From positions 1-64,000 of the IMG/VR virus record IMGVR_UViG_3300025809_000014: a stretch of 64,000 nt of DNA. One strand, given 5' to 3'. Origin of the DNA: a virus. Shown piece by piece: positions 1,818 through 61,190 of the stretch. The notes under the pieces are model-generated. The model was not told the origin of the DNA and made no database searches. It worked only from the letters and a program-made list of their open reading frames with translations. Every line of letters begins with the position of its first letter. The stretch's first letter is position 1. Position numbers and translations under genes: made by a program.

Positions 1818-3584
1818 ATGGCAGCAAGTAATTTAAATAATGATATACAACTATCACATCCTTTATACAAGAATGATCCTGGAAGAACTAGACCAGGAAA
1901 GGATGCTGATGGTGTAGTAAGAACACCTAGTAGTGAGACAGAAGACATTGCTGCTCATTCAACTATTCTGGATAGCGTTTCAGATAATGGTAAGTTTGAA
2001 TATCTTATACCTATTATAAATAACTTGGAATCTGTAAGAGAGGATTTACAAGATCTTTATACATGGACTGTTTGTGCATTTGGAAAAGATTGTAGTAAAG
2101 CTGCATCTCAGGGACCCAAAGGGGATACTGGAGCACAAGGTCCAAAAGGTGACACAGGTTCACAAGGACCTATAGGTAATACAGGACTAACTGGTGCTCA
2201 AGGTGCCCAAGGTGCTACTGGACTAAGAGGTTTACAAGGAGCAACAGGATCTCAAGGAGCAACAGGTAATAGTGGTACATCTGGTACTTCAGGAAATTCT
2301 GGTACAGCAGGTACTAGCGGTACTAGTGGTGGAAAAGGAGCAACAGGAAATACTGGAGCACAAGGTGTAAAAGGAGACACAGGAGCACAGGGTATACAAG
2401 GTGTAAAGGGTGATAAAGGTGCACAGGGAGATGCTGGATGGGGTATAACCATGAAAGGTGAGGTGGCTACTGAAGCTAACCTACCTTCTACAGGTAATTC
2501 TAACGGTGATGCTTATATTGTTCAAGCAGATGACTCTATTTGGTTATGGACATCAGCTGAGGGGTGGATAAGTGGTGGTTCTATAAAAGGACCTAAAGGA
2601 GATAAAGGTGATACTGGTGCTCAGGGAGCAACAGGTGCTCAGGGCCCACAGGGTGTCAAAGGAAATACTGGAGCAACAGGTTCACAGGGAGTTAAGGGAA
2701 ACACTGGTGCTACTGGAGCTGCTGGAACTAGTGGTGTAGACGGTGCTAAAGGAGATCAAGGAATTCAAGGGGTTAAAGGAAATACTGGATCTGCTGGTTC
2801 AAATGGATCCAATGGAGCACAAGGTATTCAAGGTATTCAGGGTGAAAAAGGAGATACTGGGGCTACTGGATCTCAAGGAATACAAGGAGTAAAAGGTAAT
2901 ACTGGAAATACAGGAGCAGCTGGTGCTAATGGAACTTCTGGTACTTCTGGAGTGAACGGAGCAACTGGACCTAAAGGTGATACTGGGTCTAAAGGTAACA
3001 CTGGGGCAGCTGGAGCAAACGGAACTTCTGGAACTAGTGGTGCTAAAGGTAATACAGGATCTACAGGTAGTCAAGGAGCACAAGGAAACCCAGGTGCCAA
3101 TGGTACATCTGGTACTTCTGGAATCAATGGAGCTAAAGGTAACACTGGTTCTACAGGTGCACAAGGAGTTAAAGGAAATACAGGTAATGCAGGAGCTAAT
3201 GGTACATCTGGCACAAGTGGATCCTCTGGTGTAAATGGAGCTAAAGGTAATACAGGTAATACAGGATCCCCTGGATCAAATGGTACATCAGGTGTTAACG
3301 GAGCAACAGGTTCACAAGGTCCAAAAGGTGATCAAGGTATACAAGGGATACAGGGTGCAACAGGTAATACAGGTGCAACTGGTGGTAAAGGAGATACAGG
3401 AGCTACTGGAGCAACAGGTCCAGCTGGAAGTAATGCAACAATAGCATGGTTTGCTGCATGTGGAGACAAAGAAACAGACCTTTATGTTGCATCAATTTGT
3501 ATAAATGAGAAAGGTGGTTATATAGGCTTTACAAATAACAAAGGTGCAACTGTTTATTGTACAAAAGTTACCCCAAAGCTTTAA
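1818..3584 (+). CDS. Collagen-like (Gly-X-Y) fibre/virion protein
   Basis: Two long G-X-Y tracts (GPKGDTGAQ, GTSGTS, GANGTS) interrupted by a LPSTGNSNGDAYIV...WLWT...W globular insert common in phage collagen proteins. Confidence 0.85.
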   Translation: MAASNLNNDIQLSHPLYKNDPGRTRPGKDADGVVRTPSSETEDIAAHSTILDSVSDNGKFEYLIPIINNLESVREDLQDLYTWTVCAFGKDCSKAASQGPKGDTGAQGPKGDTGSQGPIGNTGLTGAQGAQGATGLRGLQGATGSQGATGNSGTSGTSGNSGTAGTSGTSGGKGATGNTGAQGVKGDTGAQGIQGVKGDKGAQGDAGWGITMKGEVATEANLPSTGNSNGDAYIVQADDSIWLWTSAEGWISGGSIKGPKGDKGDTGAQGATGAQGPQGVKGNTGATGSQGVKGNTGATGAAGTSGVDGAKGDQGIQGVKGNTGSAGSNGSNGAQGIQGIQGEKGDTGATGSQGIQGVKGNTGNTGAAGANGTSGTSGVNGATGPKGDTGSKGNTGAAGANGTSGTSGAKGNTGSTGSQGAQGNPGANGTSGTSGINGAKGNTGSTGAQGVKGNTGNAGANGTSGTSGSSGVNGAKGNTGNTGSPGSNGTSGVNGATGSQGPKGDQGIQGIQGATGNTGATGGKGDTGATGATGPAGSNATIAWFAACGDKETDLYVASICINEKGGYIGFTNNKGATVYCTKVTPKL

Positions 3585-6528
3585 TTATATCAATAACCTT
3601 ATTAGATTTTATACCTCTATGGCATTCAAAGTGTCTAGGGGTATTTTTATGTTCAGGGCACCAATCCCAATCTCCTTTATCAAACTTATGGTTAGGATTA
3701 TTCCAACACCCATGACATAAAGATTCATCAGTAACTCTATAACAACTGAATTCGTGATCAGCTTCTGTAAAGTTTGATATCATCACAACAGGTGTACCTA
3801 TAGCCCAAGCTAACCAACTAAGTCCACTAGATAGCCCTATAAAGAACTCACTCTGTCTTATACAGTCAATAGTGTATTCTAAACTGGTATCAACTATCTT
3901 CTCACAATTATCAAAAGGATTGTTTTCTATAGATGTGTTGATAATAAAGTAACCTTGTTCATGTAAATAGTTTATAACTTCCTGCCACCCTTCTCTTGTC
4001 CAGAACTTACAACCAGCTGTAGAGTTAGTAGCTATAGTTACATACTTGCCTGGAACATTGTAGTTATCTTTCATACCACATTCGTTCCCCCAGTTACTTT
4101 TAACTCTTGGCACTATTTCTTTGTGCGTCAGCCCTAAAATATTGGAGGCGGCCTTTTGTAACGAAATTGTATTTGGCAACTCTGGCTCTCTATTCTTGTC
4201 ATAAAACCAACCTATCTTATACATTGCATATATATTAGGTACTTCTGAACCAGGGTTTACAAATTCTAATTCAGGATACACCTCTTCAAATAAGAAGTTC
4301 TTAAAAGTACTTACAATCACTTTACAATTATGCTTATTCTGAAACTCTAATACATAAGGTATCCATGCTATAGAGTCTCCTAAGGAGCTACTGTCAAAAG
4401 ATATATAGACACGCTTATCTTCTAAGTTTAATGTTTCATTATACACCTCTACACCATCCTTTAACACAACAGTTTTCCACTTTGTATAGTATTCTCTATA
4501 AACAGTTGACCAGTGATTAACCTTCATAACATTATGATATACTAGCTCTTCTCCATCAAGTAGATGAACAGCGAATTCGCTTTCAGATGTACCTGTAATT
4601 TCTATTCTTGGCTTTCCTATAAAGCTTTGATTTATTTGATAATCATCGTGACTTTTTACTTCTAGATTTAAAACATCCTCATATAAATTAACATGCTTTT
4701 TACCAAAGACACTACTAGTGTTATGTGTAGGCACCTCATATTTTAAAGGCTCATTTAACAAGCGCTTTAGTTGGTTCTTCATCTTCATAGGGTTTAGATC
4801 CTCTATGTAAGGTGTGAACATATCTTTATACTGTGCAAGATTACGTGCTAATATAGGTAGGCCATATGAAATAGCTTCTCTAATTGCTAGTGGGTTACAT
4901 TCCCATACAGAGTTAAACATAAATGCATCTGCAGCTAATAAGAATTTATCTACATCATTACGTTCTCCCCACACGGTAACATTACTTGGCAAGTCTGTCA
5001 TTAAAGGTTCCCAATAGTCTTGAAAGTTTCCAGCTTGGTTACCAACAAAATGAAACTGTACATTTGGTAGCTTTCTTGCAATAGCTATACCTTCTCCTTG
5101 GTTCTTACCTTTAGTCCAGAGCCCTACATTGACTACATGTTTTTTATTGATATCTAATCCTAAGTCATATTTAGCATTCATCTTGCTCTGCCAGTCATAT
5201 ATCACTGCGTCTACTGGAAACTCTAGAACTGCTCTGTGAGAAGGCATGTTTTTAAATGTTTCTAAATGATAAGGTGTACAGAATGCATATGCGTCTGGAT
5301 GGTACCTCTTATCCCTATCAGGTCTAAACGATATATTATGACAAGTTTCTATCACCTTCCAAGATCTGTCTTCAGCATATAGTAAAGGTAATACCTCTTC
5401 TGAACCATCCCCTAAATGCTCACTCATCTCATCTATATGTACAATATCAATACTATTGTATTTTATAATGTCTAGCAGTTCTGTTTTATCTTCACCTAAT
5501 GTGTAGAAGTTAGGTACAAGTTGTTTTATCTGGTTTTTTTGTACAACAAAATGATCACTATAATTAGCCCACTCTACTACATATATATTAAAACCTCTCA
5601 AGGCCTTTATTCTCTTTAGTAGAAACTCAGGCATCCCACCTGTAGAAAGATGTGGTGCTAAAAACAATACTTTTTTAGATAACTTGTTTATCATATCTTG
5701 CATTAAGATTGTATTCTTTTCTCCATGTAAGGCCATAAGATGTTCTTCTTTTGCAGGAACCGCTACCCATTCTGCTGTATGATTAATGCTACCAGTGAAT
5801 TCTAATGTCATTAGATCTACATCCTTTGTATAGTTTATATACATTATAGGAAGCCCTTCATGTATATTATACTTCCACAATAATACATTTGCTATTGTTT
5901 CTTCGTGATATGGTGCATATAACTCATGATTAGTTATAACTTTTGGGTGGTTACACATCCATGACCACTCACTTATAAAATCTTTTGATTGCTGTCCTGC
6001 TACAAAATATCCTGTTTGCCTATACTTGTTTCTAACTGACTGGTCTACATTAAATAGATCACATGCTGGATACTCTAAACTAAGATGTAACTCATCTCTA
6101 GTCTCTACACCACCACGTCCATTTATAAATAGGTAGTCATATATACCTTCTACAAAATAAGGATGTGTACAATTATCAGGGTAATGGTCAAATATTTTGT
6201 TTATGTTTGAAGTTACTACTGTATCAGAATCTATATATGCTACAGTTTTTGCATATTTATCTAAAGCATCTAATATAATAGCTGGCCTTTGAATAAGAAG
6301 CTTGTATATGTTAGGATCACTTCTGTCAATGTAATCTTTTTTTGAGGAATCTGCACTATTTAGTGTCCAAGGTATTGTTCTAGATGCATCATGTACAGAC
6401 TTGTTACAGTTCATCATGTATACAATAACTGGTATATTACTAACATTATTTATACTTTTTACTGCCATTGATACAACATCATAATATGCTTCATTAGCAT
6501 AAAGTACAAAGGCTTTATCTACTTTCAT
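3568..6528 (-). CDS. Three-domain glycosyltransferase: GT-A domain (DSD), GT4-like GT-B domain, and Aah/TibC-type autotransporter O-heptosyltransferase domain
   Basis: N-terminal YIDSDTVV. Middle APHLSTGGMP...FNSVWECNPLAIREAISYGLP. C-terminal SLGDSIAW, FFIGLSSGLSWLAWA and the 4-Cys iron-finger CHGCWN...WCP...ECHR. Confidence 0.8.
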   Translation of the reverse strand: MKVDKAFVLYANEAYYDVVSMAVKSINNVSNIPVIVYMMNCNKSVHDASRTIPWTLNSADSSKKDYIDRSDPNIYKLLIQRPAIILDALDKYAKTVAYIDSDTVVTSNINKIFDHYPDNCTHPYFVEGIYDYLFINGRGGVETRDELHLSLEYPACDLFNVDQSVRNKYRQTGYFVAGQQSKDFISEWSWMCNHPKVITNHELYAPYHEETIANVLLWKYNIHEGLPIMYINYTKDVDLMTLEFTGSINHTAEWVAVPAKEEHLMALHGEKNTILMQDMINKLSKKVLFLAPHLSTGGMPEFLLKRIKALRGFNIYVVEWANYSDHFVVQKNQIKQLVPNFYTLGEDKTELLDIIKYNSIDIVHIDEMSEHLGDGSEEVLPLLYAEDRSWKVIETCHNISFRPDRDKRYHPDAYAFCTPYHLETFKNMPSHRAVLEFPVDAVIYDWQSKMNAKYDLGLDINKKHVVNVGLWTKGKNQGEGIAIARKLPNVQFHFVGNQAGNFQDYWEPLMTDLPSNVTVWGERNDVDKFLLAADAFMFNSVWECNPLAIREAISYGLPILARNLAQYKDMFTPYIEDLNPMKMKNQLKRLLNEPLKYEVPTHNTSSVFGKKHVNLYEDVLNLEVKSHDDYQINQSFIGKPRIEITGTSESEFAVHLLDGEELVYHNVMKVNHWSTVYREYYTKWKTVVLKDGVEVYNETLNLEDKRVYISFDSSSLGDSIAWIPYVLEFQNKHNCKVIVSTFKNFLFEEVYPELEFVNPGSEVPNIYAMYKIGWFYDKNREPELPNTISLQKAASNILGLTHKEIVPRVKSNWGNECGMKDNYNVPGKYVTIATNSTAGCKFWTREGWQEVINYLHEQGYFIINTSIENNPFDNCEKIVDTSLEYTIDCIRQSEFFIGLSSGLSWLAWAIGTPVVMISNFTEADHEFSCYRVTDESLCHGCWNNPNHKFDKGDWDWCPEHKNTPRHFECHRGIKSNKVIDIIKALG

Positions 6529-8276: not shown

Positions 8277-8652
8277 GAAGCAAGCTAAGCAGGTAATAAA
8301 AGATCTAATTCAATATGATAATCTTAAACTTATAACAGCAAAGTTAGAGGATAGAATATCATTATTTGAAAAGAAAGAGTTTAGTCTTCTACAGAGATTA
8401 AACTTGAAGGACAGTATTATCTCTACCAAAAATGCTTACATAGACATACAAGAAGATATAATAAACAAGAAAAAACCTCTTAGGTTTAATGGTTTTGTGG
8501 GTGTACAAACTTTTCAAGCATCTTTAATAGATCCTATTCTATATTTTCAAACAGATATGGAACTTAAAAAAATAACTGTAGGAGTTAGAGTATTTGCACA
8601 AGTTAATAATGTTGTAGGATATGGCTTTGTTTTACAATACAAAATATTTTAA
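8179..8652 (+). CDS. Outer-membrane spanin candidate: signal peptide, coiled coil, C-terminal amphipathic beta-strands ending in Phe
   Basis: MYKLKWLMICLLVTFKSFS|Q signal; starts inside the i-spanin gene; ends GFVLQYKIF. Confidence 0.55.
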   Translation: MYKLKWLMICLLVTFKSFSQTDTLRAPVVTLTEKQAKQVIKDLIQYDNLKLITAKLEDRISLFEKKEFSLLQRLNLKDSIISTKNAYIDIQEDIINKKKPLRFNGFVGVQTFQASLIDPILYFQTDMELKKITVGVRVFAQVNNVVGYGFVLQYKIF

Positions 8653-8653
8653 T

Positions 8654-8800
8654 ATGAATGATTGGGAATTAGAAATAGCATTTCACTGGCCACACCAAAG
8701 ATTTGCACTAGGTTGGGAATTTATAGAACCAACAGAAAAGTTTAATTATACAACTATTAAGTTATATCTGTTTGCAATATCAATAACATTAGACTTCTAA
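8654..8800 (+). CDS. Hypothetical 48-aa protein (MNDWELEIAFHWPHQRFALGWEF...)
   Basis: Read from the sequence (below the track cut-off); starts 1 nt after the previous stop. Confidence 0.6.
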   Translation: MNDWELEIAFHWPHQRFALGWEFIEPTEKFNYTTIKLYLFAISITLDF

Positions 8801-8904
8801 TTAAATCAGTTAGAAGTCTTTAACATATTTAATTATTTTAATTTATCACGATACTAAGATAAGTCTAGGAATATTCATATTTTTGTATTATAAAAACATA
8901 CATC

Positions 8905-9042
8905 ATGCCTATACCAAATAAACAAATCGGCTGGAGTGCAACAGAAAACTTGTTGTGGAATATCTCGAAACAGTTAGAAAGACTGATTCAAGTAACAGGT
9001 AAGAATAATCCTACTACCACAACTACTACCACTACTCCGTAA
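8905..9042 (+). CDS. 45-aa microprotein with C-terminal Pro-Thr8-Pro (MPIPNKQIGWSATENLLWNISKQLERLIQVTGKNNPTTTTTTTTP)
   Basis: Read from the sequence; A-rich leader and an upstream TATTTTTG -7 box at 8878-8885. Confidence 0.7.
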   Translation: MPIPNKQIGWSATENLLWNISKQLERLIQVTGKNNPTTTTTTTTP

Positions 9043-9072
9043 CAAGAATTAAAAAACCAATAACTACATATT

Positions 9073-10011
9073 ATGATCAGCATATGTTCACAACCAGATG
9101 AACCATATTTTCACTGGCAAAACTTAGTACAATTCCACAATCTAGAAAAGATGGGATTATTAAAAGACCATCGTGCAGTGTTTTTATACAAAGCTGGGAG
9201 AAAGGCTTCAGAGTTTTTGAATAAGTTTAAAGAAGCATTCCCTGAAAATGTTTTCATTTTTGAAGACACTAGACAGCAAAAACATTACATACCTACATTA
9301 AAAATACATGGAGTTGTTAAGTATTTGCAGGATGACACTAAGGAACAAGATCTATTTTTAATAGATTCAGATGTTATATTTAGAGAACCTATTGATTACA
9401 GTTTGTTTAAACAAGACAACACTGTTTATTGCAGCGATACTAAAGGTTACCTAGGATATCAATACCTTAAAACAAAAGGTGATGAGATTGTAAAAGATAT
9501 GTGTAACTATATTGGTGTTTCTTTTGATACAATTGTTGAGAAGAATGATGACTCTGGAGGAGCTCAGCTATACTATAAAGGAATTCCTCATGACATACTA
9601 TTAGATTACTTCAAAGAAGTTGAGGTGCAATCACCTAAATTATATGATGTTATGAGAAAACATAAAACATATAATGATTATGATCCTCCAATACAAGCTT
9701 GGACTTCAGAAATGTGGTGTGTTCTATGGTTACTATGGAAACGAAACATTAAAACTGAGATTGTCAAAGAACTAAACTTTAGATGGGCCACAGATTCTAT
9801 AGAGATGTGGGAAACCTACAAAATCTTACACATGGCTGGTGTTGTACCAGATCATAAAGATAAGTTTTATAAAGGGCATTTTATAAATAACAACCCTTTT
9901 AATTACAATTACGACTATGTAGATGATAAATCTATAACAAAAATCTACATAGAAGAGATAATAAATACTAAGAACTCAAAAACTTTTGAGAAGCTAGTAT
10001 CTGAATTTTAA
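9073..10011 (+). CDS. GT-A glycosyltransferase resembling peptidyl O-glycosyltransferases (GT96 SERGT1 / GT95 HPAT)
   Basis: Ordered motifs YFHWQ, YIPTLKIHGVVKYL, FLIDSDVIFREPI (DxD) and AWTSEMW. Confidence 0.7.
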   Translation: MISICSQPDEPYFHWQNLVQFHNLEKMGLLKDHRAVFLYKAGRKASEFLNKFKEAFPENVFIFEDTRQQKHYIPTLKIHGVVKYLQDDTKEQDLFLIDSDVIFREPIDYSLFKQDNTVYCSDTKGYLGYQYLKTKGDEIVKDMCNYIGVSFDTIVEKNDDSGGAQLYYKGIPHDILLDYFKEVEVQSPKLYDVMRKHKTYNDYDPPIQAWTSEMWCVLWLLWKRNIKTEIVKELNFRWATDSIEMWETYKILHMAGVVPDHKDKFYKGHFINNNPFNYNYDYVDDKSITKIYIEEIINTKNSKTFEKLVSEF

Positions 10012-10049
10012 TATAACCTTAATTACTAACCCTTTAAAACAAATTAAAA

Positions 10050-10478
10050 ATGGGAAGCATTAACAAAAGACCGTTAAAGGCATACGTGAGATTCGATGGA
10101 TCTGGGCGTGTAGTAGCAGGTTCTCTTGTATTACGCAGGAATAAACCTAAGGTTGGAAATTGGCAGGAGATTGTAGCATATGAATGTTGCAACCCTACAA
10201 CTACAACAACAACAACAGCACCTTTACCAGCAGGTCAGATTTCTTCAACTTCTGACGTAGCTAACGCATGTACTGAAACACTAGACACTACTGTGTATTT
10301 ACAACTAGCAAGTGTACCTTCAATAGCAATAAATGATATAATCTATCTTGATGCTTCAGGAAGCACTCCTTTCGTTGGAGATGGATCTTACCATAGAGTT
10401 GCAAGTACTGATGGCCAAGAATGGAATGTACAAGTAAACGCTACTGGAGTAGTTCTAGCAGCTGCACTGTGTGTATAA
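10050..10478 (+). CDS. Probable virion accessory protein with CCNP-Thr7 linker
   Basis: Basic N-terminal domain, poly-Thr linker, small beta-rich C-terminal domain. Confidence 0.6.
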   Translation: MGSINKRPLKAYVRFDGSGRVVAGSLVLRRNKPKVGNWQEIVAYECCNPTTTTTTTAPLPAGQISSTSDVANACTETLDTTVYLQLASVPSIAINDIIYLDASGSTPFVGDGSYHRVASTDGQEWNVQVNATGVVLAAALCV

Positions 10479-10487
10479 TATAACTAA

Positions 10488-10518
10488 TAGCTAGGGGTGA
10501 AAACCCCTGGCTGTTTTT
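10488..10518 (+). terminator. Intrinsic terminator
   Basis: TAGCTAGGGGT-GAAA-ACCCCTGGCTG followed by T5. Confidence 0.8.
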
Positions 10519-10531
10519 AACTTAAATATTA

Positions 10532-10819
10532 ATGGAGATAAACAAGAAGTTCTTTCCTGAAGTCTTGTTAGAAAACGAAAAAGCCTATTTTGCACATCTT
10601 GAAGGTGTGATAGGTTCTGTTGATGAGTACTCTAATTTGCAGATTACTCATACAAACAATGCCTACATCTTTAGGTTAGCACCTAGTATGCCTAAGTATA
10701 ATGACATGCTGCTAGAAGAGATTCTTAGACTCCATAATATGTTTAGAATAAAGTTAGATATATCAAAAAGTATAAAAACTACAGGTACTATTGTATTTAA
10801 GATAGACTTGGAAAGCTAA
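10532..10819 (+). CDS. Hypothetical protein
   Basis: 95-aa ORF with A-rich leader. Confidence 0.65.
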   Translation: MEINKKFFPEVLLENEKAYFAHLEGVIGSVDEYSNLQITHTNNAYIFRLAPSMPKYNDMLLEEILRLHNMFRIKLDISKSIKTTGTIVFKIDLES

Positions 10820-11345: not shown

Positions 11346-11347
11346 TA

Positions 11348-11644: not shown

Positions 11645-11662
11645 ATCTCAAAATATATAATT

Positions 11663-11949: not shown

Positions 11950-12219
11950 TTATAAAGAGTTTATGAAGTGAATGGTCCATGCTATCAACCCATTAAGTTG
12001 CAATAGCACCAGGTTCCACTGTCTTCTAACAGCTACCTGTATCATTACACATATAAACCCTGCTATAAAACATGTTGGTATAAGTGTCCACTGTCCCATG
12101 ATTAAAAAACCTACACCCATGTAACCAACTCTTGTAGCTAGTCTTTCTATAGGAGATAGTCTTCTGTCTCTAACCATTGCTCTAAGCAGTGGCATCCATC
12201 TTGCTTTTATCTTTTTCAT
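11950..12219 (-). CDS. Small multi-pass membrane protein
   Basis: About three hydrophobic helices in 89 aa. Confidence 0.6.
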   Translation of the reverse strand: MKKIKARWMPLLRAMVRDRRLSPIERLATRVGYMGVGFLIMGQWTLIPTCFIAGFICVMIQVAVRRQWNLVLLQLNGLIAWTIHFINSL

Positions 12220-12863
12220 TTTGTATAACTGTTATCATATACATTCTTTTCAAAGAATTTATATTTGGTTTTAAATTTATGTAACAGATAGGGTAGACTT
12301 ATTTGATCTTGTATGGACCATAAACAATTATGGTAAAACCATTCTTTCATTAAGTTATACTCTCTATTCTCCACCACACTTTTAGAGTAAATAAATGTAC
12401 CACACTCTACTAAAAAGTTGTCATTCCAATCGTTATCTTTTTGGTAATGACTTAGTTGTTCGTGTAACTTTTCTCCTCTATATCTATCTAAAATGTATTG
12501 ATTGTTACCATTTAGAAGATCTATTACAAATTTAGTCTCTGATTCTACAGAAGATCTTCCAGAATGTTTAAAGAAACATGCATCAGTGTCTCTACAATAG
12601 TCTACCATTCGTTCAATGGCCCTACCATTTAACAAAGAGAAAGAAGAATCTAACCATATATAATAATCATATCCTGGATAGTCTTCCCAAGCTAACATCT
12701 TTGGCATTTTTGCACGCAATCTAGGATGCATTGCTAAAGGCCTAGCACTGTCAGTTTCATCACTTATTCTATTAAGAGTTATGTCATACTTATTAGACTC
12801 TTGAGGTACCCATGTAGAATGTAGAGGGCTACTAAATGATGCTGTAGTTACTAATACTTTCAT
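12216..12863 (-). CDS. GT-A glycosyltransferase (DUF616/TOD1-MUCI70-like)
   Basis: AKMPKML, YYIWLDSS, FFKH..R, QDQISLPYLL. Confidence 0.7.
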   Translation of the reverse strand: MKVLVTTASFSSPLHSTWVPQESNKYDITLNRISDETDSARPLAMHPRLRAKMPKMLAWEDYPGYDYYIWLDSSFSLLNGRAIERMVDYCRDTDACFFKHSGRSSVESETKFVIDLLNGNNQYILDRYRGEKLHEQLSHYQKDNDWNDNFLVECGTFIYSKSVVENREYNLMKEWFYHNCLWSIQDQISLPYLLHKFKTKYKFFEKNVYDNSYTK

Positions 12864-13618
12864 TTTATAAAGTCAGATAACATTTTTGCATAATCTTTAT
12901 TCCATTTGGGACGCAAGTATACTTCACCTGTAGGTATATTACCTTTTATCCTCTCGTTTTCTATGTGAGCTGAGTGTCTTTCTATAATATTAGGTTTAGT
13001 GTCATCATCTGCACCTTGTCCAGATTGATGATATCCTCTACCGCCCCACATGTAAAACCAAGAAGCTTCTTTTTCAGGGAGCTTAACATTATTAACATAC
13101 TGTCTTCCAAAACCATGGATCTTATTTGTTAAAATTGCATCACCACCAGCATTTACTAATGGACTTTTACCTATTCTCTCCCAGACACTCTTACTATATA
13201 CTATTCCTGAGTTACCCACTCCAGTTATAGCTGTAATGTTAGGTTCATTATAAAACACACCTGTTTCCCAGTGTATTATATTAGTATCATGATTCCAGTT
13301 CTGAGCTATGTTTGTTAAATGATTAGTTAGTGCTACATCATCGTCATCCCATACAGCAATAAGATCTCCTTTACATCGCTCAATAGCATAGTTCTCTTTC
13401 TCTCCTATTAAAGGAAATGTTTCATCTAAGTTATAAATGGTAACTTGGGGGTGATCGTATATTAGTTTTTGTTTGGGGTAATCATTAACAATAACTAACT
13501 CACATCTATCTTTTGGATAATCCTGTATAAGAAAGCTATAAAGTGCTTCTTCTAGTGTATCAACTCGTCCGTATGTAATACATTTACAAGATATAAAAGG
13601 AAATCGACTCATTACCAA
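12860..13618 (-). CDS. Glycosyltransferase family 2
   Basis: ITYGR..LEEAL, ELVIVND, GDLIAVWDDDD. Confidence 0.85.
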   Translation of the reverse strand: MVMSRFPFISCKCITYGRVDTLEEALYSFLIQDYPKDRCELVIVNDYPKQKLIYDHPQVTIYNLDETFPLIGEKENYAIERCKGDLIAVWDDDDVALTNHLTNIAQNWNHDTNIIHWETGVFYNEPNITAITGVGNSGIVYSKSVWERIGKSPLVNAGGDAILTNKIHGFGRQYVNNVKLPEKEASWFYMWGGRGYHQSGQGADDDTKPNIIERHSAHIENERIKGNIPTGEVYLRPKWNKDYAKMLSDFIK

Positions 13619-27309: not shown

Positions 27310-27711
27310 TTAATATTTTTTATAAGATTTCTCTTCAGTTAAATTAGAATTAGTTAATTGATTAATTTGCTTTTTAATTAAAGCTCGTTTGTCATTAGTA
27401 ACATAAACAGATCTAGCTAAGTCTATAAACTTTTGACTAAAGTCTTTGTCTCTTTCACAATCACGAATGTCATCCTCTATATTCCATAATAAGGAATTTA
27501 CTTCAGTAAGTTCATCATAGAGTTTTCTTAGTGGTGCCTGATGAAGATCTAAGAGCATTAAAACATAAGGATAGAGTGTTTGATGTTCATTTTTAACATT
27601 AACAAGTTTATCCTCATTATCCATTTTTAACAGTTTGATATCTAGAATTGACAATTTATCTACTAGTTCACCGTGTGATATTTCTATTTTCATTTTATTG
27701 ATTTTATCCAA
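27310..27711 (-). CDS. DUF6165-like protein
   Basis: ISHGELVDKLSILDIK, LWNIEDDIR, F..LARSVY.TND.RA.IK..IN, EEKSY. Confidence 0.75.
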   Translation of the reverse strand: MDKINKMKIEISHGELVDKLSILDIKLLKMDNEDKLVNVKNEHQTLYPYVLMLLDLHQAPLRKLYDELTEVNSLLWNIEDDIRDCERDKDFSQKFIDLARSVYVTNDKRALIKKQINQLTNSNLTEEKSYKKY

Positions 27712-28568
27712 TTAATTAAACTTACCTGTGGTGTCCAACCCAAGTCTTTCTTTATCTTACTTATGTCACTAAGAGATCGTTTAGCTTCTTCTCTAGCAGG
27801 TATAAATTCTATTTTGTTACTAAAAGCTTTAGCTACATCTATAATCTTTACCTCCTGACCAGAACCAACGTTCCAAGTGCCTTCAGTTCCTATTGCAGCT
27901 ATGATAGCATCAACTACATCTTTAACATATACAAAGTCTCTGGTTTGTTGACCATCTCCTGTAACTGTTAGCTTCTTGTGACTTAAGTATTGCTTTAAAA
28001 ATATGGGTACAGCTGAAAGGTAACCACCTTCAGTAAGCTGTCTTTCTCCAAAAACATTAAAGAATCTTAATACTGCCACAGAAACATGATCTGGTACTGC
28101 TTTACAGAGCGCTTCCATCATGTATTTAGACATTGCATATGGATTCAGTGGATCTAAATCACTATTTTCTGATAGAGGAAAGCTTCTTGAATTACCATAC
28201 ACAGCAGCTGTAGAAGCTACAACTATCTCTTTACAACCACATTGTCTAACAGCCCATTCAAATAAAAGAGCTGAACCATCAACAATCTGATCATGATACT
28301 TCTGTTTATTATTTAAACTTTCTTCTACAGATACAGGTGCTGCTAAATGAATGAGTGTATTAAACTGCATATCAGGTAAATGTCCCCACATAGTATTACC
28401 TACCTCGTAGATTATCACTAAAGGTTGAGGTTTTAATGGAAATAAGTTCTTAACCTTTCCAGTGCTAAAGTTATCAAGAATTACTATCTCTTGCCCTAAC
28501 TTCTGTAGTTGTTCAGATAAATGACTTCCAATAAAACCTGCTCCCCCTGTTATTAATACCCTATTCAT
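27690..28568 (-). CDS. NAD-dependent nucleotide-sugar epimerase/dehydratase (GalE/HldD-like SDR)
   Basis: ITGGAGFIGSH, STAAVYG, YAMSK, RFFNVFG, GDGQQTRDFVYV. Confidence 0.9.
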   Translation of the reverse strand: MNRVLITGGAGFIGSHLSEQLQKLGQEIVILDNFSTGKVKNLFPLKPQPLVIIYEVGNTMWGHLPDMQFNTLIHLAAPVSVEESLNNKQKYHDQIVDGSALLFEWAVRQCGCKEIVVASTAAVYGNSRSFPLSENSDLDPLNPYAMSKYMMEALCKAVPDHVSVAVLRFFNVFGERQLTEGGYLSAVPIFLKQYLSHKKLTVTGDGQQTRDFVYVKDVVDAIIAAIGTEGTWNVGSGQEVKIIDVAKAFSNKIEFIPAREEAKRSLSDISKIKKDLGWTPQVSLINWIKSIK

Positions 28569-54026: not shown

Positions 54027-55169
54027 ATGGCTGATTTTTCATTAACCACGTTATTCGTGGTGCCAGTAGGGCAAACTGCTGTCCCTAGCTCTGGTTCGAC
54101 TCAAGATTTAACTGCAGGAACTGTAGGAATCTTTGATCAAAATTATGCAACTGTAACTGCTGCTGCTGGAGCAAATCCTGCTAGTGATGCAAAGTACATT
54201 TACATCGCTCAAGGTAGAGCAAACACTTATTTACAAGGATCTAAAAGATCTGACAAGATTAAAGGATGCCCAACAGCTGGTGCTTCCTGCAATTCAAATG
54301 TAACAGAATGGTACAAAGTATCAGGTTGTGCTACTGCTGCTAATCAAATTACTGATGTAACAGACTTCAAAGTACAATGTGGTGAAATCGTAACTTTAAC
54401 ATTACGTGCTCACTCTTCTTACATTGATACACTATACTTCAATGGATTTACACGTTCTGTAACTGTAAATGCTCCATGTTGTGAATGTGGTGGTGATGTA
54501 TGTACTGATGTAGATGTTAACGCATTAATCAACTCTCTAATTGTTAAATTACAACAAGAGGCTCCTGGAGATAATCCAGACAACGTTTCTTTCAACTCTT
54601 TCTTTACTTTTGAAAATGTTGGTGGAACTAAACTTAGAATCGAAGGTAAACCATTAACTAAATATGGTCAACCTTGTGATGTTGCTGCATTCCCATTCGA
54701 GTATGACAGAATGTACTTCAGTACTTTTGTATACGATGGACCAGCTACAACTGCTGATTTTATTGTTGCTGACGCTTGTAATATCGTTGCTAACTCTGCT
54801 GTAGTCCAAAAAGCATCTTATGCTTCTGGAGGATCTGAAGAATTCAAGCAATTAGAAAAGAACTTCTACAGCTACCAAGCTGGATATTTAAAGTCACTAT
54901 ATAGAATGGGTGGCTACAATGAGAACTTTGAATCTTATGTGACTGATGGAGTTGTTTACGATAGCTACTACATTAGATTTAACCAATTAGATAAGGCAGC
55001 TTATCAATGGGGAGATTACATCATGCAAGACTCAACTGTAATCATTGCTGTACCTAATGCTGACACAAGTGGAATTGCTGCTCTTATTGAGCCAATCCTA
55101 GAAGATGCTTTAGGACTTGTTGATGATGACAACACTTGTATTACAACTACGACTACTGCTGCTGCTTAA
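54027..55169 (+). CDS. Structural protein (auxiliary capsid/decoration candidate) with C-terminal Thr5
   Basis: 380 aa, beta-rich, Cys pairs, own terminator; ends CITTTTTAAA. Confidence 0.6.
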   Translation: MADFSLTTLFVVPVGQTAVPSSGSTQDLTAGTVGIFDQNYATVTAAAGANPASDAKYIYIAQGRANTYLQGSKRSDKIKGCPTAGASCNSNVTEWYKVSGCATAANQITDVTDFKVQCGEIVTLTLRAHSSYIDTLYFNGFTRSVTVNAPCCECGGDVCTDVDVNALINSLIVKLQQEAPGDNPDNVSFNSFFTFENVGGTKLRIEGKPLTKYGQPCDVAAFPFEYDRMYFSTFVYDGPATTADFIVADACNIVANSAVVQKASYASGGSEEFKQLEKNFYSYQAGYLKSLYRMGGYNENFESYVTDGVVYDSYYIRFNQLDKAAYQWGDYIMQDSTVIIAVPNADTSGIAALIEPILEDALGLVDDDNTCITTTTTAAA

Positions 55170-55840: not shown

Positions 55841-56002
55841 ATGGCCCAGTGTGCAAATTGTGGTGCAAAGGTAGGATGTGGATGTCAGTTAACTAACGGT
55901 CTATGTGCTCATTGTAATGGTAATTCTAAAAAGGAAGTAACAACATCAACTTATGTTAACACCCAGATTAACAAACTGTCAGGACTGTCACAAGATACCT
56001 GA
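55841..56002 (+). CDS. 53-aa Cys-rich microprotein (MAQCANCGAKVGCGCQLTNGLCAHC...)
   Basis: Read from the sequence; ATG 2 nt after the previous stop; overlaps the next gene. Confidence 0.6.
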   Translation: MAQCANCGAKVGCGCQLTNGLCAHCNGNSKKEVTTSTYVNTQINKLSGLSQDT

Positions 56003-57872
56003 TTTACTTAGACAGATAGACTGTAAGATAGCAGAGCTTGCTAACGGTGCATACAATAATGTTGTATTCATGTTAGGTGATTGTGTTCCTGCTACTACAA
56101 TTGTTCAGTTACTAGCATATAAACGTATATTAACGTTTAAATACTGCAATCCTCATTATGGAGGATGTTCGTCTGTCAATGATATTGCTGGTAAAGTTAT
56201 TCGTTTAACATCTGGATGTGTTGCTAAATGTAACGAACCTACAGTATGTGAAATAACAACATGCCCTATACCTATAGTACCAAACCCAACAACTACAACA
56301 ACTACTACTTCTCCAATAATTTGTGAGTTTAGTGGAAATATAATTTGTATTCCACCAACAACCACTACAACTACTACTACTATATTACCAGATTGTAGAG
56401 TTGAAGGATGTTTCCAAATTAGAGAGATCCCACCTCCACCTCAATGTGATGCACCTTTTAATACAAATTTACCAGAAGGTTTCCCTGATGGTATAACAGG
56501 TAACGGTACAAAAGTATTATCTAATGGTGTTCAATTAACTACAACTTATACAGGACCAACAATTTCACCTTTTTTATTAACAGATCCTGGAACAGAGGAG
56601 TTATGTGATGGAGTATTGATTAATACATATAATGATACTGACAAGACTCAGCTACCTCTAATAATAGGAGGATCTATAGTTTTAGAATTTGACCCACCTG
56701 TAGTTTCTGTAGCACTTGTTAGTACTGGATACGGATACAGTAGTTTATTAGGTGAGGTAGAAACTATAACTGTAGAGTCTTTAGATCCTATTATAGGTGA
56801 AACATTACTTAGCTGTAGCTTAAATGAAGCTAATGCTACATACGAAACAACTCAAGTTAATGAAAATCAAATTAACTTAACAGGTGTACAAATTAGCCCA
56901 AGTTTACAAACTGGTATTACTGTTATTACACCAGAAGCAGGAGGTATATCTAGATTAGTATTAACTAACACTACAAGTCTTCCATTAGCTGGTGTAGCAT
57001 TTGATTTATATGCATGTGGTGGAGTAGCTCCAACAACTACAACCACTACAACTGTTATTCCACCAGGTCCTGAGTGTACAGAGGGGCTGGATGTAGCATT
57101 TGTAATTGATTATACTGCATCTATGACTAGTGTAATTGAAAATGTAAAATCAGGAGTAGCAGGTATTGTAAATGCTATTTATACTCAGTCAGGTGCTGGT
57201 GGGTATAGATTAGCTCTAACTACTAGTGATCAATATTTTGATACAATAGATCCATATTATGGAAATTGTTTTGATTATTTACAATTACCATTATCTCAAA
57301 GATTAATAGAAGGACCTTTTCCAACAGCAGCACCAAATTCTATTGACACAAACATAGTAAGTACTGCTTGGGAAAAATTTAGTGATAATAATCAAGCAAC
57401 ATTTAATGCACAACTTCAAAAATTAAATGAAGGTGTAGATGGTAATTGTATACAAATAGGAGAGGGTGCAGCTGGTCCAGAACCTTGTGATTATGTTTCC
57501 AAATTAATTATAGAATCAGATTTTGTAGGAGCATTTAGACCAACTGCTGCAAAGCGTATTATTATATTAACTGATCAATTTCCAGGAAGCACTAGAGATT
57601 ATTTTGACGTAGTTACTTGGCAAGGTATACAAGATCTAATTACACATGCTAATGCAAATGGAATTAAATATTTTGTTTTAGGTATGGGTGTTAATTTGGT
57701 TGGTGGTCCATATCCAAATACTAATCAAAGTGTTGCTGGTATATATCCATGGAGAGAGTTAGCAGAACAAACTGGTGGAGATTGGAGCTTTGATGCAACT
57801 TCAGAAGAAATACAACAGCAAATAGTAGCTGGATGTGAGACAACTACAACTACAACCACAAATCAAAACTAA
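55953..57872 (+). CDS. Modular virion protein: Cys-rich N-terminus, poly-Thr linkers, beta-sandwich module, vWA domain
   Basis: LDVAFVIDYTASM (MIDAS-like), IIILTD, ELAEQTGG; four Thr7-8 tracts. Confidence 0.75.
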   Translation: MLTPRLTNCQDCHKIPDLLRQIDCKIAELANGAYNNVVFMLGDCVPATTIVQLLAYKRILTFKYCNPHYGGCSSVNDIAGKVIRLTSGCVAKCNEPTVCEITTCPIPIVPNPTTTTTTTSPIICEFSGNIICIPPTTTTTTTTILPDCRVEGCFQIREIPPPPQCDAPFNTNLPEGFPDGITGNGTKVLSNGVQLTTTYTGPTISPFLLTDPGTEELCDGVLINTYNDTDKTQLPLIIGGSIVLEFDPPVVSVALVSTGYGYSSLLGEVETITVESLDPIIGETLLSCSLNEANATYETTQVNENQINLTGVQISPSLQTGITVITPEAGGISRLVLTNTTSLPLAGVAFDLYACGGVAPTTTTTTTVIPPGPECTEGLDVAFVIDYTASMTSVIENVKSGVAGIVNAIYTQSGAGGYRLALTTSDQYFDTIDPYYGNCFDYLQLPLSQRLIEGPFPTAAPNSIDTNIVSTAWEKFSDNNQATFNAQLQKLNEGVDGNCIQIGEGAAGPEPCDYVSKLIIESDFVGAFRPTAAKRIIILTDQFPGSTRDYFDVVTWQGIQDLITHANANGIKYFVLGMGVNLVGGPYPNTNQSVAGIYPWRELAEQTGGDWSFDATSEEIQQQIVAGCETTTTTTTNQN

Positions 57873-57881: not shown

Positions 57882-60800
57882 ATGATAATATTTATAACAT
57901 TAAGTTTCGCAGGTGCAGAGTCAGGTCCTTTTGATCTGTACTCTGATGTTGATGGTTTTACTACACCATTTGCACAAAATGTAAGCAAGGCTGACCTTTT
58001 ATTAGGTTATGAAGCCGTAGCTCCTGATGGAACAACAACTGTTAGATTGTTAGATTTAGGTGCAGACTGTGCACCCTTTACAACAGATATATACAACTGT
58101 GCTACACCAAATTGTGATTTCTCTGGAGAGATTAATTGTATAATACCAGACTGTAACTTTAGTGGAACAATTGTTTGCCCTGCGCCAGAAACTACAACCA
58201 CCACTACTACTGGATATCCAGGATTCTCACCATGTACTTGGTCAACTTATGGAGGTAACCCTGGAGAAATAGCTGTATACGACTTTAATACTGGTTCATC
58301 AACCGTGGTGTTAGTACCTAATGATTTTACAACCACTTCAGGAATAAACAGACCTATCTGTTCTACATCAAGTAAGTTATGGTTAGCTGGCTATCCTGCA
58401 TCTTCTACAACTTGTGGTAATATTAATATAACTAAACCAGAAGGTTTCCCTAATGCTGTAACAGGAAATGGAACAAAAACATTATCTAATGGTGTAGTGT
58501 TAACTACAACATATACTGGTCCTGCTCCAATATATGATTCACAACCAGGAAATTGGGAGGTATGTGATGGATTTTACCTAAATCGGACAAATACTAGTAC
58601 AAGTGCAAGTTTCTCATTAAAAGTTAATGGAGAATTGACTATGGAGTTTGATCCTCCTATAAACTGTATTCAATTTATATCTAGTGCATGGGGTTATAGT
58701 GGAGATCCAAAAACAGAAGGTGATATGGAGATTGTATCTGTAACCAGTGCGTCTTCTATTATAGGTGAGCAGATTATGCAATGTACTAGAGGTAATGATC
58801 CTGAAGACATTCCTACATACCAAACAATACAGATAAGTCCAAATCAAGTTAACATGCAAGGTTATCAGGAGTTTGAAAATTCGTCTTTTCAAGTTGGATC
58901 AACTAGAATTATATCAGAAGAGAACGGTATTTCAAAATTAGTACTTACTAATATATCTCCAACAAATGTGAGGGGAGTAATTATTGATTTCTATGTAGAC
59001 GATATTTCGGTTACAAATAATCCTACTGGACTTCAATATATTAGAGAATGGGATATAGATACATCTGGTGCTACACCAACTCTATCTTTTGTTAGAGAAA
59101 TATCTATTGACGTAGATAATCTATCTAACCAAGGTATATGGGGAAGTGAAATAACTGCAATAGCTACAACTACTGACAATAATACATTACTTGCAGGATT
59201 TGGTGCAAGAGATAATGGCGAAACTAGTATGGGTGTTTACTCATGGGATATTTCTACATCTGGTAATATTTTACTAAATGAAAGTAATAAAATAGATAAA
59301 GCATCTGTAAGTTTTGGTAATACGTTTGGAATTATAACAGAGCTTACAGGAATGTTTATCACTAATGATGACAATGTTATTCTTTCTGCTAGATACTACG
59401 AAGATGAAAGTCCTAATAATGCAGCAAACCGTGTAAGACAATATGAAGGACTAGACTTAAGTTCTTGGACATCATCATCACCTGTTATTAATTTACAACA
59501 GCGTGGTGTTCCTGAATTTACCACTGCGTGGACTAGTACAAGTAAAGCTATGCCTGTATGGGGCGTAAATGGATTATTACAGGTAATTCAACCAGAAACA
59601 CTTCAAGTATATAACATTGATCAAATAGGACCATACAATGCTACACTGTCAGGTACAGTGGCTGATGATACTGTTTGGATACACACATCAACTGGTTGTG
59701 CAAATGTTAATATTCAGTATGATGATTGTGAAGGAGCTACGTGGATACCTGCATTAACTGAACAAATTGAAGATGAGTGGGTATATACAGGACCTGCTAC
59801 TTTTACATATGCAGGAGTTGAGGTTACAGCTAGTGCCACTCAAGATAATATGAGATTACAATCAGGTGATACTATAGGAGGTATACCACAAGAAGGATGT
59901 AGTGGAATATCTAACCCATCTGCAAATAATGTATTAACAACTCTTAAAGGTTTTGATTTTACTATTACGTTAAGTTTTTCACAGCCTGTTAATAATATTC
60001 CTATTAGAGCTGCTGTACTTAATAGTCAACCTGACTTAAGTTCTGGAGATGTTTATACATTTGACACAAACACAGGAACACCTACTGTATCAATTAGTAC
60101 TGGATGTAATGTTCAAGTGCAAGGAAATAAAATAGGTGGAGGTGTACCAGATTACAATACTGAAGGTGACGGAGAGTTTATTGTATCGTCTGATGAAAAC
60201 TATACAATTTTAACTATATCTGGTGATGCACCAACTGGAGGACCATTATTATTAGGTTGTTTAGAAGTTGAAAAAAACTGTACATGGGCAACACCTTTTA
60301 GAGGAAGTGCTGGAGCTGATACAGTGTTTATATATAACCCACTAGCTAATACATATTTACCACAATCTCTTTCAAATGGGTTTGGTAGTGTATTTGACTA
60401 TCTCAGAGGAAATTTTAGCTCAGAGAATATTTTGTTTTTTGCAAAAAAAGATGGATCTGATCTTCGTATAAAAAGATATAATATAGGACAAGGTTTAACA
60501 TACATTGATGAGATAGTAGTAACTGCTCCTTCTGGTGAACAATTTTCAGCACCAGTTACATGTGCGATAGATGATAATACTCTTTTATTAAATACAACCC
60601 AAGGAACTCTAGGGTACGTTGGTAAAATATATAAACTAGTAATAAATTCAGACGGTACAACTACACTAACATTCTTATTTACTTTAGAAAGTGAGAGACC
60701 TTATTGGACATCTCCGATATTTTCAAATAATAAAATAATATATCAGAGACTAGATACTCAAGATATTGGCGATCCACGTTATATAGTTCAAAGGGATTAC

Positions 60801-61190
60801 GCTACCTTAGATATAGAACTTGAAATAAATGTAACATACTTAGACATTGGTGGATCATCACCAGATGGGTATCTTATTCAGAACACTACCCAGTCTATGT
60901 TTTTCTATGAGGATAAAATGTACATACTTGTAAGTGGTATTAAATTATATGAAATAGATACAACTTTCCCTTACAATACTACATTAATAAATGAAAACAC
61001 AGAATTCTTTGGTCCAGGAGAATTTAATAATCAATATTTAAGAGCTTGGAGTAATTCAGGTGAATGTAGTTCAAACCTATCTTTCATTCCAACAAATGAA
61101 ACTACAACAACTACCACTAGTGTAACAACGCTACCACCAAATGCTCCAAATACAATATGGATAAAGTTTAACCCTGTAACTCCAGCATAG
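57882..61190 (+). CDS. Large modular virion/spike protein with poly-Thr linkers
   Basis: GPFDLYSD N-terminus, module shared with the previous gene, propeller-like segments. Confidence 0.65.
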   Translation: MIIFITLSFAGAESGPFDLYSDVDGFTTPFAQNVSKADLLLGYEAVAPDGTTTVRLLDLGADCAPFTTDIYNCATPNCDFSGEINCIIPDCNFSGTIVCPAPETTTTTTTGYPGFSPCTWSTYGGNPGEIAVYDFNTGSSTVVLVPNDFTTTSGINRPICSTSSKLWLAGYPASSTTCGNINITKPEGFPNAVTGNGTKTLSNGVVLTTTYTGPAPIYDSQPGNWEVCDGFYLNRTNTSTSASFSLKVNGELTMEFDPPINCIQFISSAWGYSGDPKTEGDMEIVSVTSASSIIGEQIMQCTRGNDPEDIPTYQTIQISPNQVNMQGYQEFENSSFQVGSTRIISEENGISKLVLTNISPTNVRGVIIDFYVDDISVTNNPTGLQYIREWDIDTSGATPTLSFVREISIDVDNLSNQGIWGSEITAIATTTDNNTLLAGFGARDNGETSMGVYSWDISTSGNILLNESNKIDKASVSFGNTFGIITELTGMFITNDDNVILSARYYEDESPNNAANRVRQYEGLDLSSWTSSSPVINLQQRGVPEFTTAWTSTSKAMPVWGVNGLLQVIQPETLQVYNIDQIGPYNATLSGTVADDTVWIHTSTGCANVNIQYDDCEGATWIPALTEQIEDEWVYTGPATFTYAGVEVTASATQDNMRLQSGDTIGGIPQEGCSGISNPSANNVLTTLKGFDFTITLSFSQPVNNIPIRAAVLNSQPDLSSGDVYTFDTNTGTPTVSISTGCNVQVQGNKIGGGVPDYNTEGDGEFIVSSDENYTILTISGDAPTGGPLLLGCLEVEKNCTWATPFRGSAGADTVFIYNPLANTYLPQSLSNGFGSVFDYLRGNFSSENILFFAKKDGSDLRIKRYNIGQGLTYIDEIVVTAPSGEQFSAPVTCAIDDNTLLLNTTQGTLGYVGKIYKLVINSDGTTTLTFLFTLESERPYWTSPIFSNNKIIYQRLDTQDIGDPRYIVQRDYATLDIELEINVTYLDIGGSSPDGYLIQNTTQSMFFYEDKMYILVSGIKLYEIDTTFPYNTTLINENTEFFGPGEFNNQYLRAWSNSGECSSNLSFIPTNETTTTTTSVTTLPPNAPNTIWIKFNPVTPA

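Follow-up and report, generated by a model that had tools for sequence, protein, structure and literature searches.

Virion glycosylation by phage enzymes has, in the literature that was reached, been demonstrated only in mycobacteriophages, where it is reported to alter antibody recognition. Glycosyltransferases encoded by the mycobacteriophages Che8, Corndog and Myrna are reported to modify the phages' own structural proteins in the cytoplasm, with the glycans located at the C-termini of capsid and tail-tube subunits (Freeman et al. 2023, Cell Host Microbe, as cited in PMC12619734; also PMC12582341). By analogy, this is the closest established system to the one described here, a three-gene cassette in which a glycosyltransferase is encoded between two small proteins with poly-threonine (poly-Thr) tracts. 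The cassette lies at positions 8905-10518 of a 64,000-nucleotide stretch of viral DNA (the window; positions 1 to 64,000 of the 97.7-kb IMG/VR record IMGVR_UViG_3300025809_000014, a genome rated 86% complete). The glycosylated C-termini of the mycobacteriophage capsid and tail tube are the positions at which poly-Thr tails are found in phages of Gram-positive hosts that carry relatives of the cassette enzyme. The two systems differ in their hosts (Bacteroidota-type here, Bacillota and others among the relatives) and in the predicted acceptor, which here is a pure Thr homopolymer on small anchor and fibre-like proteins rather than on the capsid. The cassette enzyme probably O-glycosylates Thr residues of proteins in the cytoplasm, with poly-Thr serving as its acceptor tag. 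No description of poly-Thr tags with this enzyme family was found in the literature on poly-threonine or threonine-rich glycosylated phage proteins.

A second comparison is offered by the plant and algal hydroxyproline O-arabinosyltransferases HPAT1-3 (GT95) and the peptidyl-serine alpha-galactosyltransferase SGT1/SERGT1 (GT96). These are endoplasmic reticulum (ER)/Golgi proteins that begin the glycosylation of hydroxy-amino acids in peptides of repetitive, extended form (PMC4908140). The phage enzyme would be alike in its proposed function, the addition of the first sugar to hydroxy-amino acids of an extended repetitive peptide. The acceptors differ, being hydroxyproline (Hyp) and Ser next to Hyp in plants and, by prediction, poly-Thr here, and so does the architecture: plant HPAT enzymes are membrane-anchored, whereas the phage enzyme is compact and soluble, with no N-terminal anchor in its model. 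General O-glycosylation by a Bacteroidota host was rejected as an explanation, since that system recognises another short motif and works outside the cytoplasm, the compartment in which virion proteins are assembled.

The cassette and the threonine tracts of the genome

The cassette and its flanking signals comprise the following features.

8878..8885, + strand: Bacteroidota-type -7 box-like motif (TAnnTTTG), an exact match 20 nt before the first ATG
8905..9042, + strand: 45-aa mini-protein ('family A'), an open reading frame (ORF) with homologues in relatives; a conserved N-terminal module of ~30 aa, then only N-N-P-T8-P
9013..9036, + strand: Thr8 tract, candidate acceptor, C-terminal in the 45-aa protein (ORF translation and tract scan)
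9073..10011, + strand: soluble GT-A glycosyltransferase of 312 aa, phrog_4417 family, with DxD (D98/D100), H253 and K267 (PHROGs match and AlphaFold2 fold)
10050..10478, + strand: 142-aa protein ('family B') with an N-terminal module (residues ~10-45, ending Cys-Cys), a T7 linker and a variable C-terminal domain (ORF, paralogues and AlphaFold2 model)
10197..10217, + strand: Thr7 tract, candidate acceptor, in C-C-N-P-T7-A-P of the 142-aa protein (ORF translation and tract scan)
10486..10515, + strand: intrinsic terminator closing the cassette (13-pair stem with 6 GC pairs, GAAA loop, T run)

Three + strand ORFs of 45, 312 and 142 aa fill 8905-10478, with a promoter-like box 5' and a strong terminator 3'. 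All three ORFs are present as claimed in the first-pass annotation of this DNA, and the terminator that it had placed at 10488 was borne out as the GAAA-loop hairpin and T run listed above. The -7 box that it had read at 8878 is an exact match and the sole TAnnTTTG on the + strand from 6632 to 10831; however, TAnnTTTG occurs 113 times in the window, where 86 occurrences are expected, so the box alone is weak, suggestive evidence of a promoter. A sigma-70 promoter scan was uninformative, returning fewer matches than were obtained in shuffled sequences.

The C-terminal part of the 142-aa protein matches phrog_21885. In the AlphaFold2 model of this protein, residues 10-45 form a small three-stranded unit with a predicted local distance difference test (pLDDT) score of ~90, and the Thr tract and the remainder score below 50, a low confidence that would suit a disordered linker. 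In proteins of different phages, the Thr runs are often directly preceded by Cys-Cys or another Cys-rich motif, as is seen here at 10185-10196, the end of the family B module.

Five near-complete relatives of this phage (capsid 94% identical) each carry a member of the enzyme family that is only ~30% identical to the window enzyme, flanked by the same two anchor-plus-poly-Thr gene families. The cassette has thus been conserved while its enzyme gene was exchanged for one encoding a distant member of the family. Each of the five genomes has one to three family A and B paralogues. Family A homologues in the relatives (49-57 aa) comprise the same N-terminal module and poly-Thr, and in the paralogues this module heads proteins of 122-382 aa, one of which has collagen-like Gly-Thr-Ser repeats. 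Family B proteins (73-232 aa) have an N-terminal module of ~45 residues ending Cys-Cys, which is followed by Thr runs and, in some but not all of them, by a variable C-terminal domain; the paralogues in the relatives always carry Thr tracts. Since their homologues and paralogues are conserved in this way, the 45-aa and 142-aa ORFs are real genes. We infer that the proteins of both families combine a docking module with a tag, to which some of them add a distal domain.

A six-frame scan for Thr runs over the whole record identified 27 runs of Thr5-8, all in late + strand ORFs, of which 16 are exactly T7 and two are T8; they are spread over 9013-61118 of the window and 64197-74972 of the record. 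The tracts are non-random, with ~0.00016 T7 runs expected by chance in this proteome. Pro stands at position -1 of 14 tracts and S, V or A usually follows, giving the typical form P-T7-[S/V/A]. No other amino acid has comparable runs in the genome, the apparent Val runs being the antisense of Thr tracts. The codons of the tracts are a mixture of ACT and ACA that matches the genome background, which argues for selection on the protein and not for DNA slippage. The preference for seven residues could be due to the footprint of the enzyme, to a requirement for linker length or to a limit on slippage; other enzyme-carrying phages use T6, T9-10 or runs of up to ~28, compared to the T7 mode here. 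Outside the cassette, the tract-bearing late proteins of the window are as follows.

54027..55169, + strand: 380-aa late protein with the C-terminal tail T5-AAA (tract scan; no family match)
55953..57872, + strand: 639-aa Cys-rich late protein with four T7-T8 tracts, one of them C-terminal (tract scan; faint VWA matches only)
57882..61190, + strand: 1102-aa late protein with T7 and T6 tracts (tract scan)

Beyond the window, Thr tracts are found in an 88-aa protein, in a 419-aa protein with ~10 tandem tracts, and in a 2225-aa protein that is encoded downstream of the capsid gene and matches 'virion structural protein' PHROGs.

Co-distribution of the enzyme and poly-Thr tracts

Eighty IMG/VR loci encoding a homologue of the enzyme (34-83% identical) were examined within 10 kb for runs of six or more Thr (T6+), and 116 random viral loci (974 kb), sampled from contigs by an arbitrary 14-mer, were used as a control. 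T6+ runs were present near the homologue in 69 of the 80 loci, mostly on the strand of the enzyme and at a density of 16 per 100 kb, compared to 1 of the 116 control loci and 0.10 per 100 kb (Fisher p 7e-40), an enrichment of 160-fold. Most of the negative homologue loci are truncated. When the enzymes were clustered at 50% identity, 10 of the 11 clusters were T6+-positive and the eleventh was a truncated contig. The enzymes of the carriers share as little as 30-40% identity, and the hosts belong to Bacillota, Actinomycetota and Bacteroidota. The co-occurrence of enzyme and poly-Thr, which the first-pass annotation had suggested testing across Crassvirales, is tight and specific across unrelated phages.

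For the reverse test, IMG/VR was scanned for seven ACN codons, and 45 of the records so found were searched in full together with 50 random records. The enzyme was present in 5 of the 28 records with true Thr-run ORFs, in 0 of the 17 others and in 0 of the 50 random records (0/67 together; p 0.002). The remaining 23 of the 28 poly-Thr records lack this enzyme, three of them being rated 100% or 96% complete, so tracts can exist as plain linkers or as targets of other enzymes. The relationship is therefore asymmetric: the enzyme almost always occurs with poly-Thr, and poly-Thr often occurs without the enzyme.

These enzyme-less records favour a reading in which the poly-Thr tracts are flexible, protease-resistant linkers or tails, the enzyme targets a host polysaccharide, teichoic acid or lipopolysaccharide (LPS), as in receptor masking, or phage DNA, and the association arises from a shared neighbourhood or host ecology. 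Thr-rich linkers are common in secreted multi-domain proteins, and the best fold matches of the cassette enzyme include LPS and O-antigen enzymes (see below). The 160-fold enrichment across such divergent enzymes and hosts argues against this reading, as do the gene order and the within-lineage co-variation described in the following two paragraphs, the solubility of the enzyme, which has no membrane segment, and the lack of any hydroxymethylase-type gene for DNA hypermodification. No thymidylate-synthase- or hydroxymethylase-like gene was found in this genome at its 86% completeness, and sugar modification or hypermodification of phage DNA is not favoured for this reason. Overall, plain linkers with an unrelated enzyme target are considered improbable.

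Homologues of the enzyme were found in 77 deposited phage genomes, mainly those of Lactobacillus, Enterococcus, Staphylococcus, Lactococcus and Clostridium phages, with the best deposited match (38%) in Chryseobacterium phage MA9V-3. The gene is located inside head/tail operons, directly after the gene for a tagged protein: it directly follows the tail-tube gene in Lactococcus phage 1706, Enterococcus phage phiFL1A, Clostridium phage phiCTP1 and Arcanobacterium phage TPWB06, and the capsid gene in Enterococcus phage Planchet. In 1706, phiFL1A, phiCTP1 and TPWB06, the C-terminus of the tube protein is a Thr run, and in 1706 and phiFL1A that of the capsid protein is as well. In phage 1706, the capsid (orf10) and the major structural/tube (orf13) proteins each end in T9-10 followed by an identical three residues; in phiFL1A, the tails are on the capsid-module protein gp45 and the tail tube gp50. 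The 1706 homologue, orf14, is annotated 'unknown' and its neighbours 'structural protein', as expected for an enzyme that is not packaged. The location of the runs at capsid and tail-tube C-termini in Gram-positive phages, and on small anchor and fibre-like proteins here, supports the earlier proposal that poly-Thr is a portable tag. In TPWB06, the 3' end of the tail-tube gene is overlapped by a 69-aa ORF that is read in a different frame and consists of nearly nothing but Thr runs (locus L398, 7720-7926). In Planchet, a Thr-rich frame that is not in phase with the capsid gene occupies the interval from the capsid stop codon to the enzyme gene (locus L399, ~7778-7880). These frames may lengthen the tag on a fraction of the subunits through frameshift or read-through, or may encode mini-proteins of their own.

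The relationship was followed within a single, Enterococcus-type lineage at 27 IMG/VR loci whose tube proteins are related to that of phiFL1A (64-100% identical). The tube protein has a poly-Thr tail in all 12 loci with the enzyme gene directly downstream and in none of the 15 loci without the enzyme (12/12 vs 0/15; p 6e-8), and the 15 enzyme-less loci have no run of five or more Thr anywhere in the locus. The enzyme-positive loci fall in at least two separate identity groups, indicating repeated joint gain or loss of the enzyme and the tail.

Fold and family of the 312-aa enzyme

The 312-aa enzyme matches the phrog_4417 profile over its full length (E 1.8e-67, residues 1-300 on profile positions 1-292 of 293). 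This is a large phage protein family of unknown function whose members carry no informative names; 253 clusters (90% identity) were recovered from the single sequence and 1480 from a profile, with 714 representatives at 50% identity, and members are frequently fused to GT2, methyltransferase or radical-SAM/SPASM domains. The four enzyme motifs quoted in the first-pass annotation are present at residues 12-16, 72-85, 96-107 and 210-215, and coincide with the invariant or near-invariant family columns W15, Q16, Y72, P74, D98, D100, W210, M214 and W215. Across more than 1400 homologues, D98 and D100 (the DxD motif), H253 and K267 are invariant or nearly so, as is G256 in the family alignments; D98 and D100 are both invariant in one alignment (A1), and in a second (A2) D100 is invariant and D98 is present at 90% or more. 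The invariant H253, followed by A-G and then K267, resembles the GT8 pattern His-x-x-Gly-x-x-Lys, and DxD together with H253, G256 and K267 fits a transferase dependent on a metal and a nucleotide sugar.

The AlphaFold2 model of the enzyme (39-sequence alignment) has a pLDDT of 96.7 and a predicted template modelling (pTM) score of 0.92, and its fold confirms the GT-A label. The model is compact and globular, its first beta strand already lies at residues 2-8, and it has no N-terminal anchor or membrane segment, which points to a soluble, cytoplasmic enzyme. Foldseek returned 196 PDB chains at E<=0.001, the top matches being WbbM, glycogenin and the UGGT catalytic domain. A second structure search, independent of Foldseek, recovered glycogenin (Z 14.4), LgtC (14.2), Skp1 alpha-galactosyltransferase (13.7), UGGT (13.3), WbbM (13.3), a GT8 protein (3tzt; 13.2), GlyE (13.0), LARGE1 (12.9) and A64R of the giant virus PBCV-1 (2p6w; 11.6); the top-ranked matches in both searches are GT-A enzymes.

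In these model comparisons, the closest structures to the enzyme are retaining GT-A enzymes of GT8/GT24 type, and from these neighbours its mechanism is probably retaining. The GT8-type enzymes and UGGT (GT24) are its best whole-chain matches, with a DxD and a similar C-terminal His-x-x-Gly...Lys pattern; several GT8-type enzymes act on proteins or protein-bound glycans in the cytoplasm, and GlyE comes from the glycosylation of serine-rich-repeat adhesins. Unlike them, the phage family has invariant motifs of its own and no Pfam GT8 match, and the structural matches, which span 210-246 aligned residues, are only 8-12% identical in sequence. No Pfam family was matched by the 312-aa protein at E<=1, PF01501 (GT8) included, the GT8 profile was absent among the Pfam matches of 39 and of 51 family members, and a PDB sequence search with the 312-aa protein gave noise only. 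A further parallel, among the giant-virus enzymes that glycosylate capsids, is PBCV-1 A64R, a soluble GT-A enzyme with which the virus modifies its capsid protein without the host ER/Golgi. It belongs to a eukaryotic virus and scores lower than the GT8/GT24 matches, and the PBCV-1 capsid carries its glycans on Asn instead of a homopolymer tag.

The first-pass annotation had named polysaccharide, LPS or DNA-modifying enzymes as best structural matches as an outcome that would refute its proposal. The check does not discriminate: protein-glycosylating enzymes (glycogenin, Skp1 alpha-galactosyltransferase, UGGT, GlyE) are mixed with LPS enzymes (LgtC, WbbM). The fold searches also bear on whether a simple UDP-derived sugar is transferred, as the enzyme could place a sugar-phosphate or a similar group on the Thr tracts in the manner of stealth/GlcNAc-1-phosphotransferase-like enzymes, which share the GT-A core. 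GlcNAc-1-phosphotransferase and CpsY-type phosphotransferases are indeed among the matches (Z 8.8-9.3, Foldseek rank 19), but they score far below the GT8/GT24 matches (Z 13-14), and DxD with a C-terminal His resembles the pattern of GT8-type sugar transferases; sugar-phosphate transfer is therefore considered very improbable. Self-glycosylation through a Thr tract of the enzyme's own was rejected, since only 1 of the 384 family proteins collected has even a T5 run.

Kinship with the plant SERGT1/HPAT enzymes, which the first-pass annotation had put forward, was assessed with the Pfam model PF23452 (HPAT; gathering score 23.9 bits) and found weak support. The model matched neither the window protein nor any other protein in the whole genome, and the DUF7164 profile also had no match in the genome. 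Among family members, PF23452 matched 1 of 39 (E 0.38) and 3 of 51 (best E 1.3e-4), and over 50 carrier phage records it gave one match, at 16.4 bits, below the cut-off. The sub-threshold match is colinear (model 7-112 with residues 7-112) and covers the aromatic-Trp-Gln, Tyr-x-Pro and DxD motifs. In a protein-language-model atlas, 17 of the 30 nearest named clusters were labelled HPAT (best 10% share of members), followed by DUF7164 and then, at lower scores, by GT6 and GT8. A profile search of a 5.8-billion-protein set gave best 120 matches that are all unannotated and phage-type, with no bridge to plant HPATs among them. HPAT is thus the only named Pfam family that recurs, weakly, on members of the phage family, and a kinship between the two is possible on these sequence matches. 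In a 371-kb IMG/VR jumbo phage (L437), tandem enzyme paralogues are located at 591-1514 and 1518-2441, the first being the HPAT-matched sequence.

Proposed glycosylation route and other sugar genes

The enzyme is not the only sugar-related gene product of this phage, the others in the window being as follows.

3568..6528, - strand: 986-aa protein with GT4 (residues ~457-596) and GT9/heptosyltransferase-like (~791-924) domains (PF00534 1.4e-10, PF01075 8.3e-9; phrog_2170 glycosyltransferase)
12216..12863, - strand: TOD1/MUCI70 (DUF616)-type glycosyltransferase-like protein, candidate glycan extender (PF04765, E 7.1e-5, 22.7 bits, above cut-off)
12860..13618, - strand: GT2 glycosyltransferase, candidate glycan extender (PF00535, E 1.8e-9)
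27690..28568, - strand: NAD-dependent sugar-nucleotide epimerase/dehydratase, GDP-mannose dehydratase-like (PF01370 5.7e-46, PF16363 5.3e-42)

The nearby GT2, DUF616-like and GT4 domains named in the earlier annotation were thus recovered by Pfam, with a GT9 domain and a sugar-nucleotide enzyme in addition. The 986-aa protein is the sole - strand gene in the first 11.9 kb and has an unassigned N-terminal third; it is a second candidate protein glycosyltransferase. The epimerase/dehydratase gene is located in the replication block, between a uracil-DNA glycosylase (UDG)-like gene and a DUF932 gene, and its product is a possible source of an unusual donor sugar.

Another phage glycosyltransferase could be the initiating enzyme, and this is the main rival to a first-sugar role for the 312-aa enzyme, which would then extend a glycan whose first sugar is placed on Thr by another enzyme (GT9/heptosyltransferase-like or GT2 here, a host enzyme elsewhere). 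The GT2, TOD1/MUCI70-like, GT4 and GT9-like domains of this phage are compatible with such a role, the fusions of family members to GT2, methyltransferase and radical-SAM domains are as expected for multi-step glycan building, and several of the best fold matches (LgtC, Skp1 alpha-galactosyltransferase, LARGE1) extend glycans and do not start them. However, no GT2 or GT4 gene was found in 1706, phiFL1A, phiCTP1, TPWB06 or Planchet, five small cultured phages of Gram-positive hosts that carry the enzyme, leaving this enzyme as their only common candidate for the first sugar, and in the Enterococcus lineage it is this family, and no other glycosyltransferase, that tracks the poly-Thr tails. A purely extending role is therefore regarded as unlikely, although the first sugar may conceivably come from a host enzyme.

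In the preferred reading, in which the enzyme itself modifies Thr, a soluble, metal-dependent GT-A enzyme would transfer a sugar from a nucleotide-sugar donor to the Thr hydroxyls of poly-Thr tracts on late proteins of the phage itself, either ahead of particle assembly or in the course of it. A minimal, portable, disordered acceptor tag would be provided by the poly-Thr run (here typically P-T7-[S/V/A]), carried in this phage by the two small anchor-plus-tag proteins, the Cys-rich fibre-like proteins and the 2225-aa virion structural protein. The GT2, TOD1/MUCI70-like, GT4 and GT9-like domains, together with the epimerase/dehydratase, may extend or diversify the glycan, and the outcome would be mucin-like glycosylated stalks and tails displayed on the surface of the virion. 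Of the initiating transferase and mucin-like coat proposed in the first-pass annotation, the coupling of enzyme and tract is supported by the co-distribution and the joint gain or loss, and the mucin-like coat of the virion is a conjecture.

Several points weigh against this reading. The chemistry of the family is a prediction, and the co-distribution establishes a functional tie and not a chemistry. Most poly-Thr viral records, including the three rated as complete or nearly so, lack the enzyme. LPS and O-antigen enzymes (LgtC, WbbM) match its fold equally well, and at least four other glycosyltransferase domains are encoded by this phage, one of them GT9/heptosyltransferase-like, that could belong to the initiating enzyme. 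The two small flanking proteins are putative virion components, and a coat that covers the entire particle need not be assumed, since a Thr tail is absent from the capsid protein here.

A wider generalisation is advanced more tentatively, and we would give it somewhat less than even weight. One soluble family may read a bare Thr homopolymer as a universal, transplantable tag for cytoplasmic O-glycosylation, with which thousands of phages (of Bacillota, Actinomycetota and Bacteroidota, and jumbo phages) would build mucin-like stalks on capsids, tubes, fibres and mini-proteins; the family would be an ancient relative of GT95/GT96 and the prokaryotic-virus counterpart of mucin- and extensin-type glycosylation. 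If poly-Thr and this enzyme family do form a general system of virion O-glycosylation, sugar-coated particles would be widespread, including among phages of Enterococcus, Lactococcus, Lactobacillus, Staphylococcus and Clostridium and among abundant environmental phages. This would matter for the immunogenicity, clearance and mucus adherence of phages used in therapy, for the biology of dairy phages and for host recognition. An acceptor of seven Thr that is read by a single soluble enzyme would also lend itself well to glycosylating proteins at chosen sites in bacteria. Since the pair of enzyme and poly-Thr is carried by cultured phages with small genomes, the idea can be tested directly. The unusual extras of the present phage are its 45-80-aa proteins consisting of a docking module and a Thr tag, a tract length quantised at seven, and at least four further glycosyltransferase domains.

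The phage, whose membership of the Crassvirales, implied in the first-pass annotation, is putative, belongs to a lineage without a near DNA match among cultured phages, and the nearest capsid proteins of isolates are those of a Leptolyngbya phage (26%) and of Flavobacterium psychrophilum phages (23%). Its capsid protein (50534-52087) recruits at least 599 IMG/VR contigs, the best 80 of which are 93-99% identical, indicating that the lineage is abundant in metagenomes. Just downstream of the cassette, at 11151-11907, three consecutive small + strand ORFs (64, 98 and 79 aa) have an extreme abundance of Lys, Arg, Ala and Gly, and their products may be basic proteins that bind DNA or lie inside the virion.

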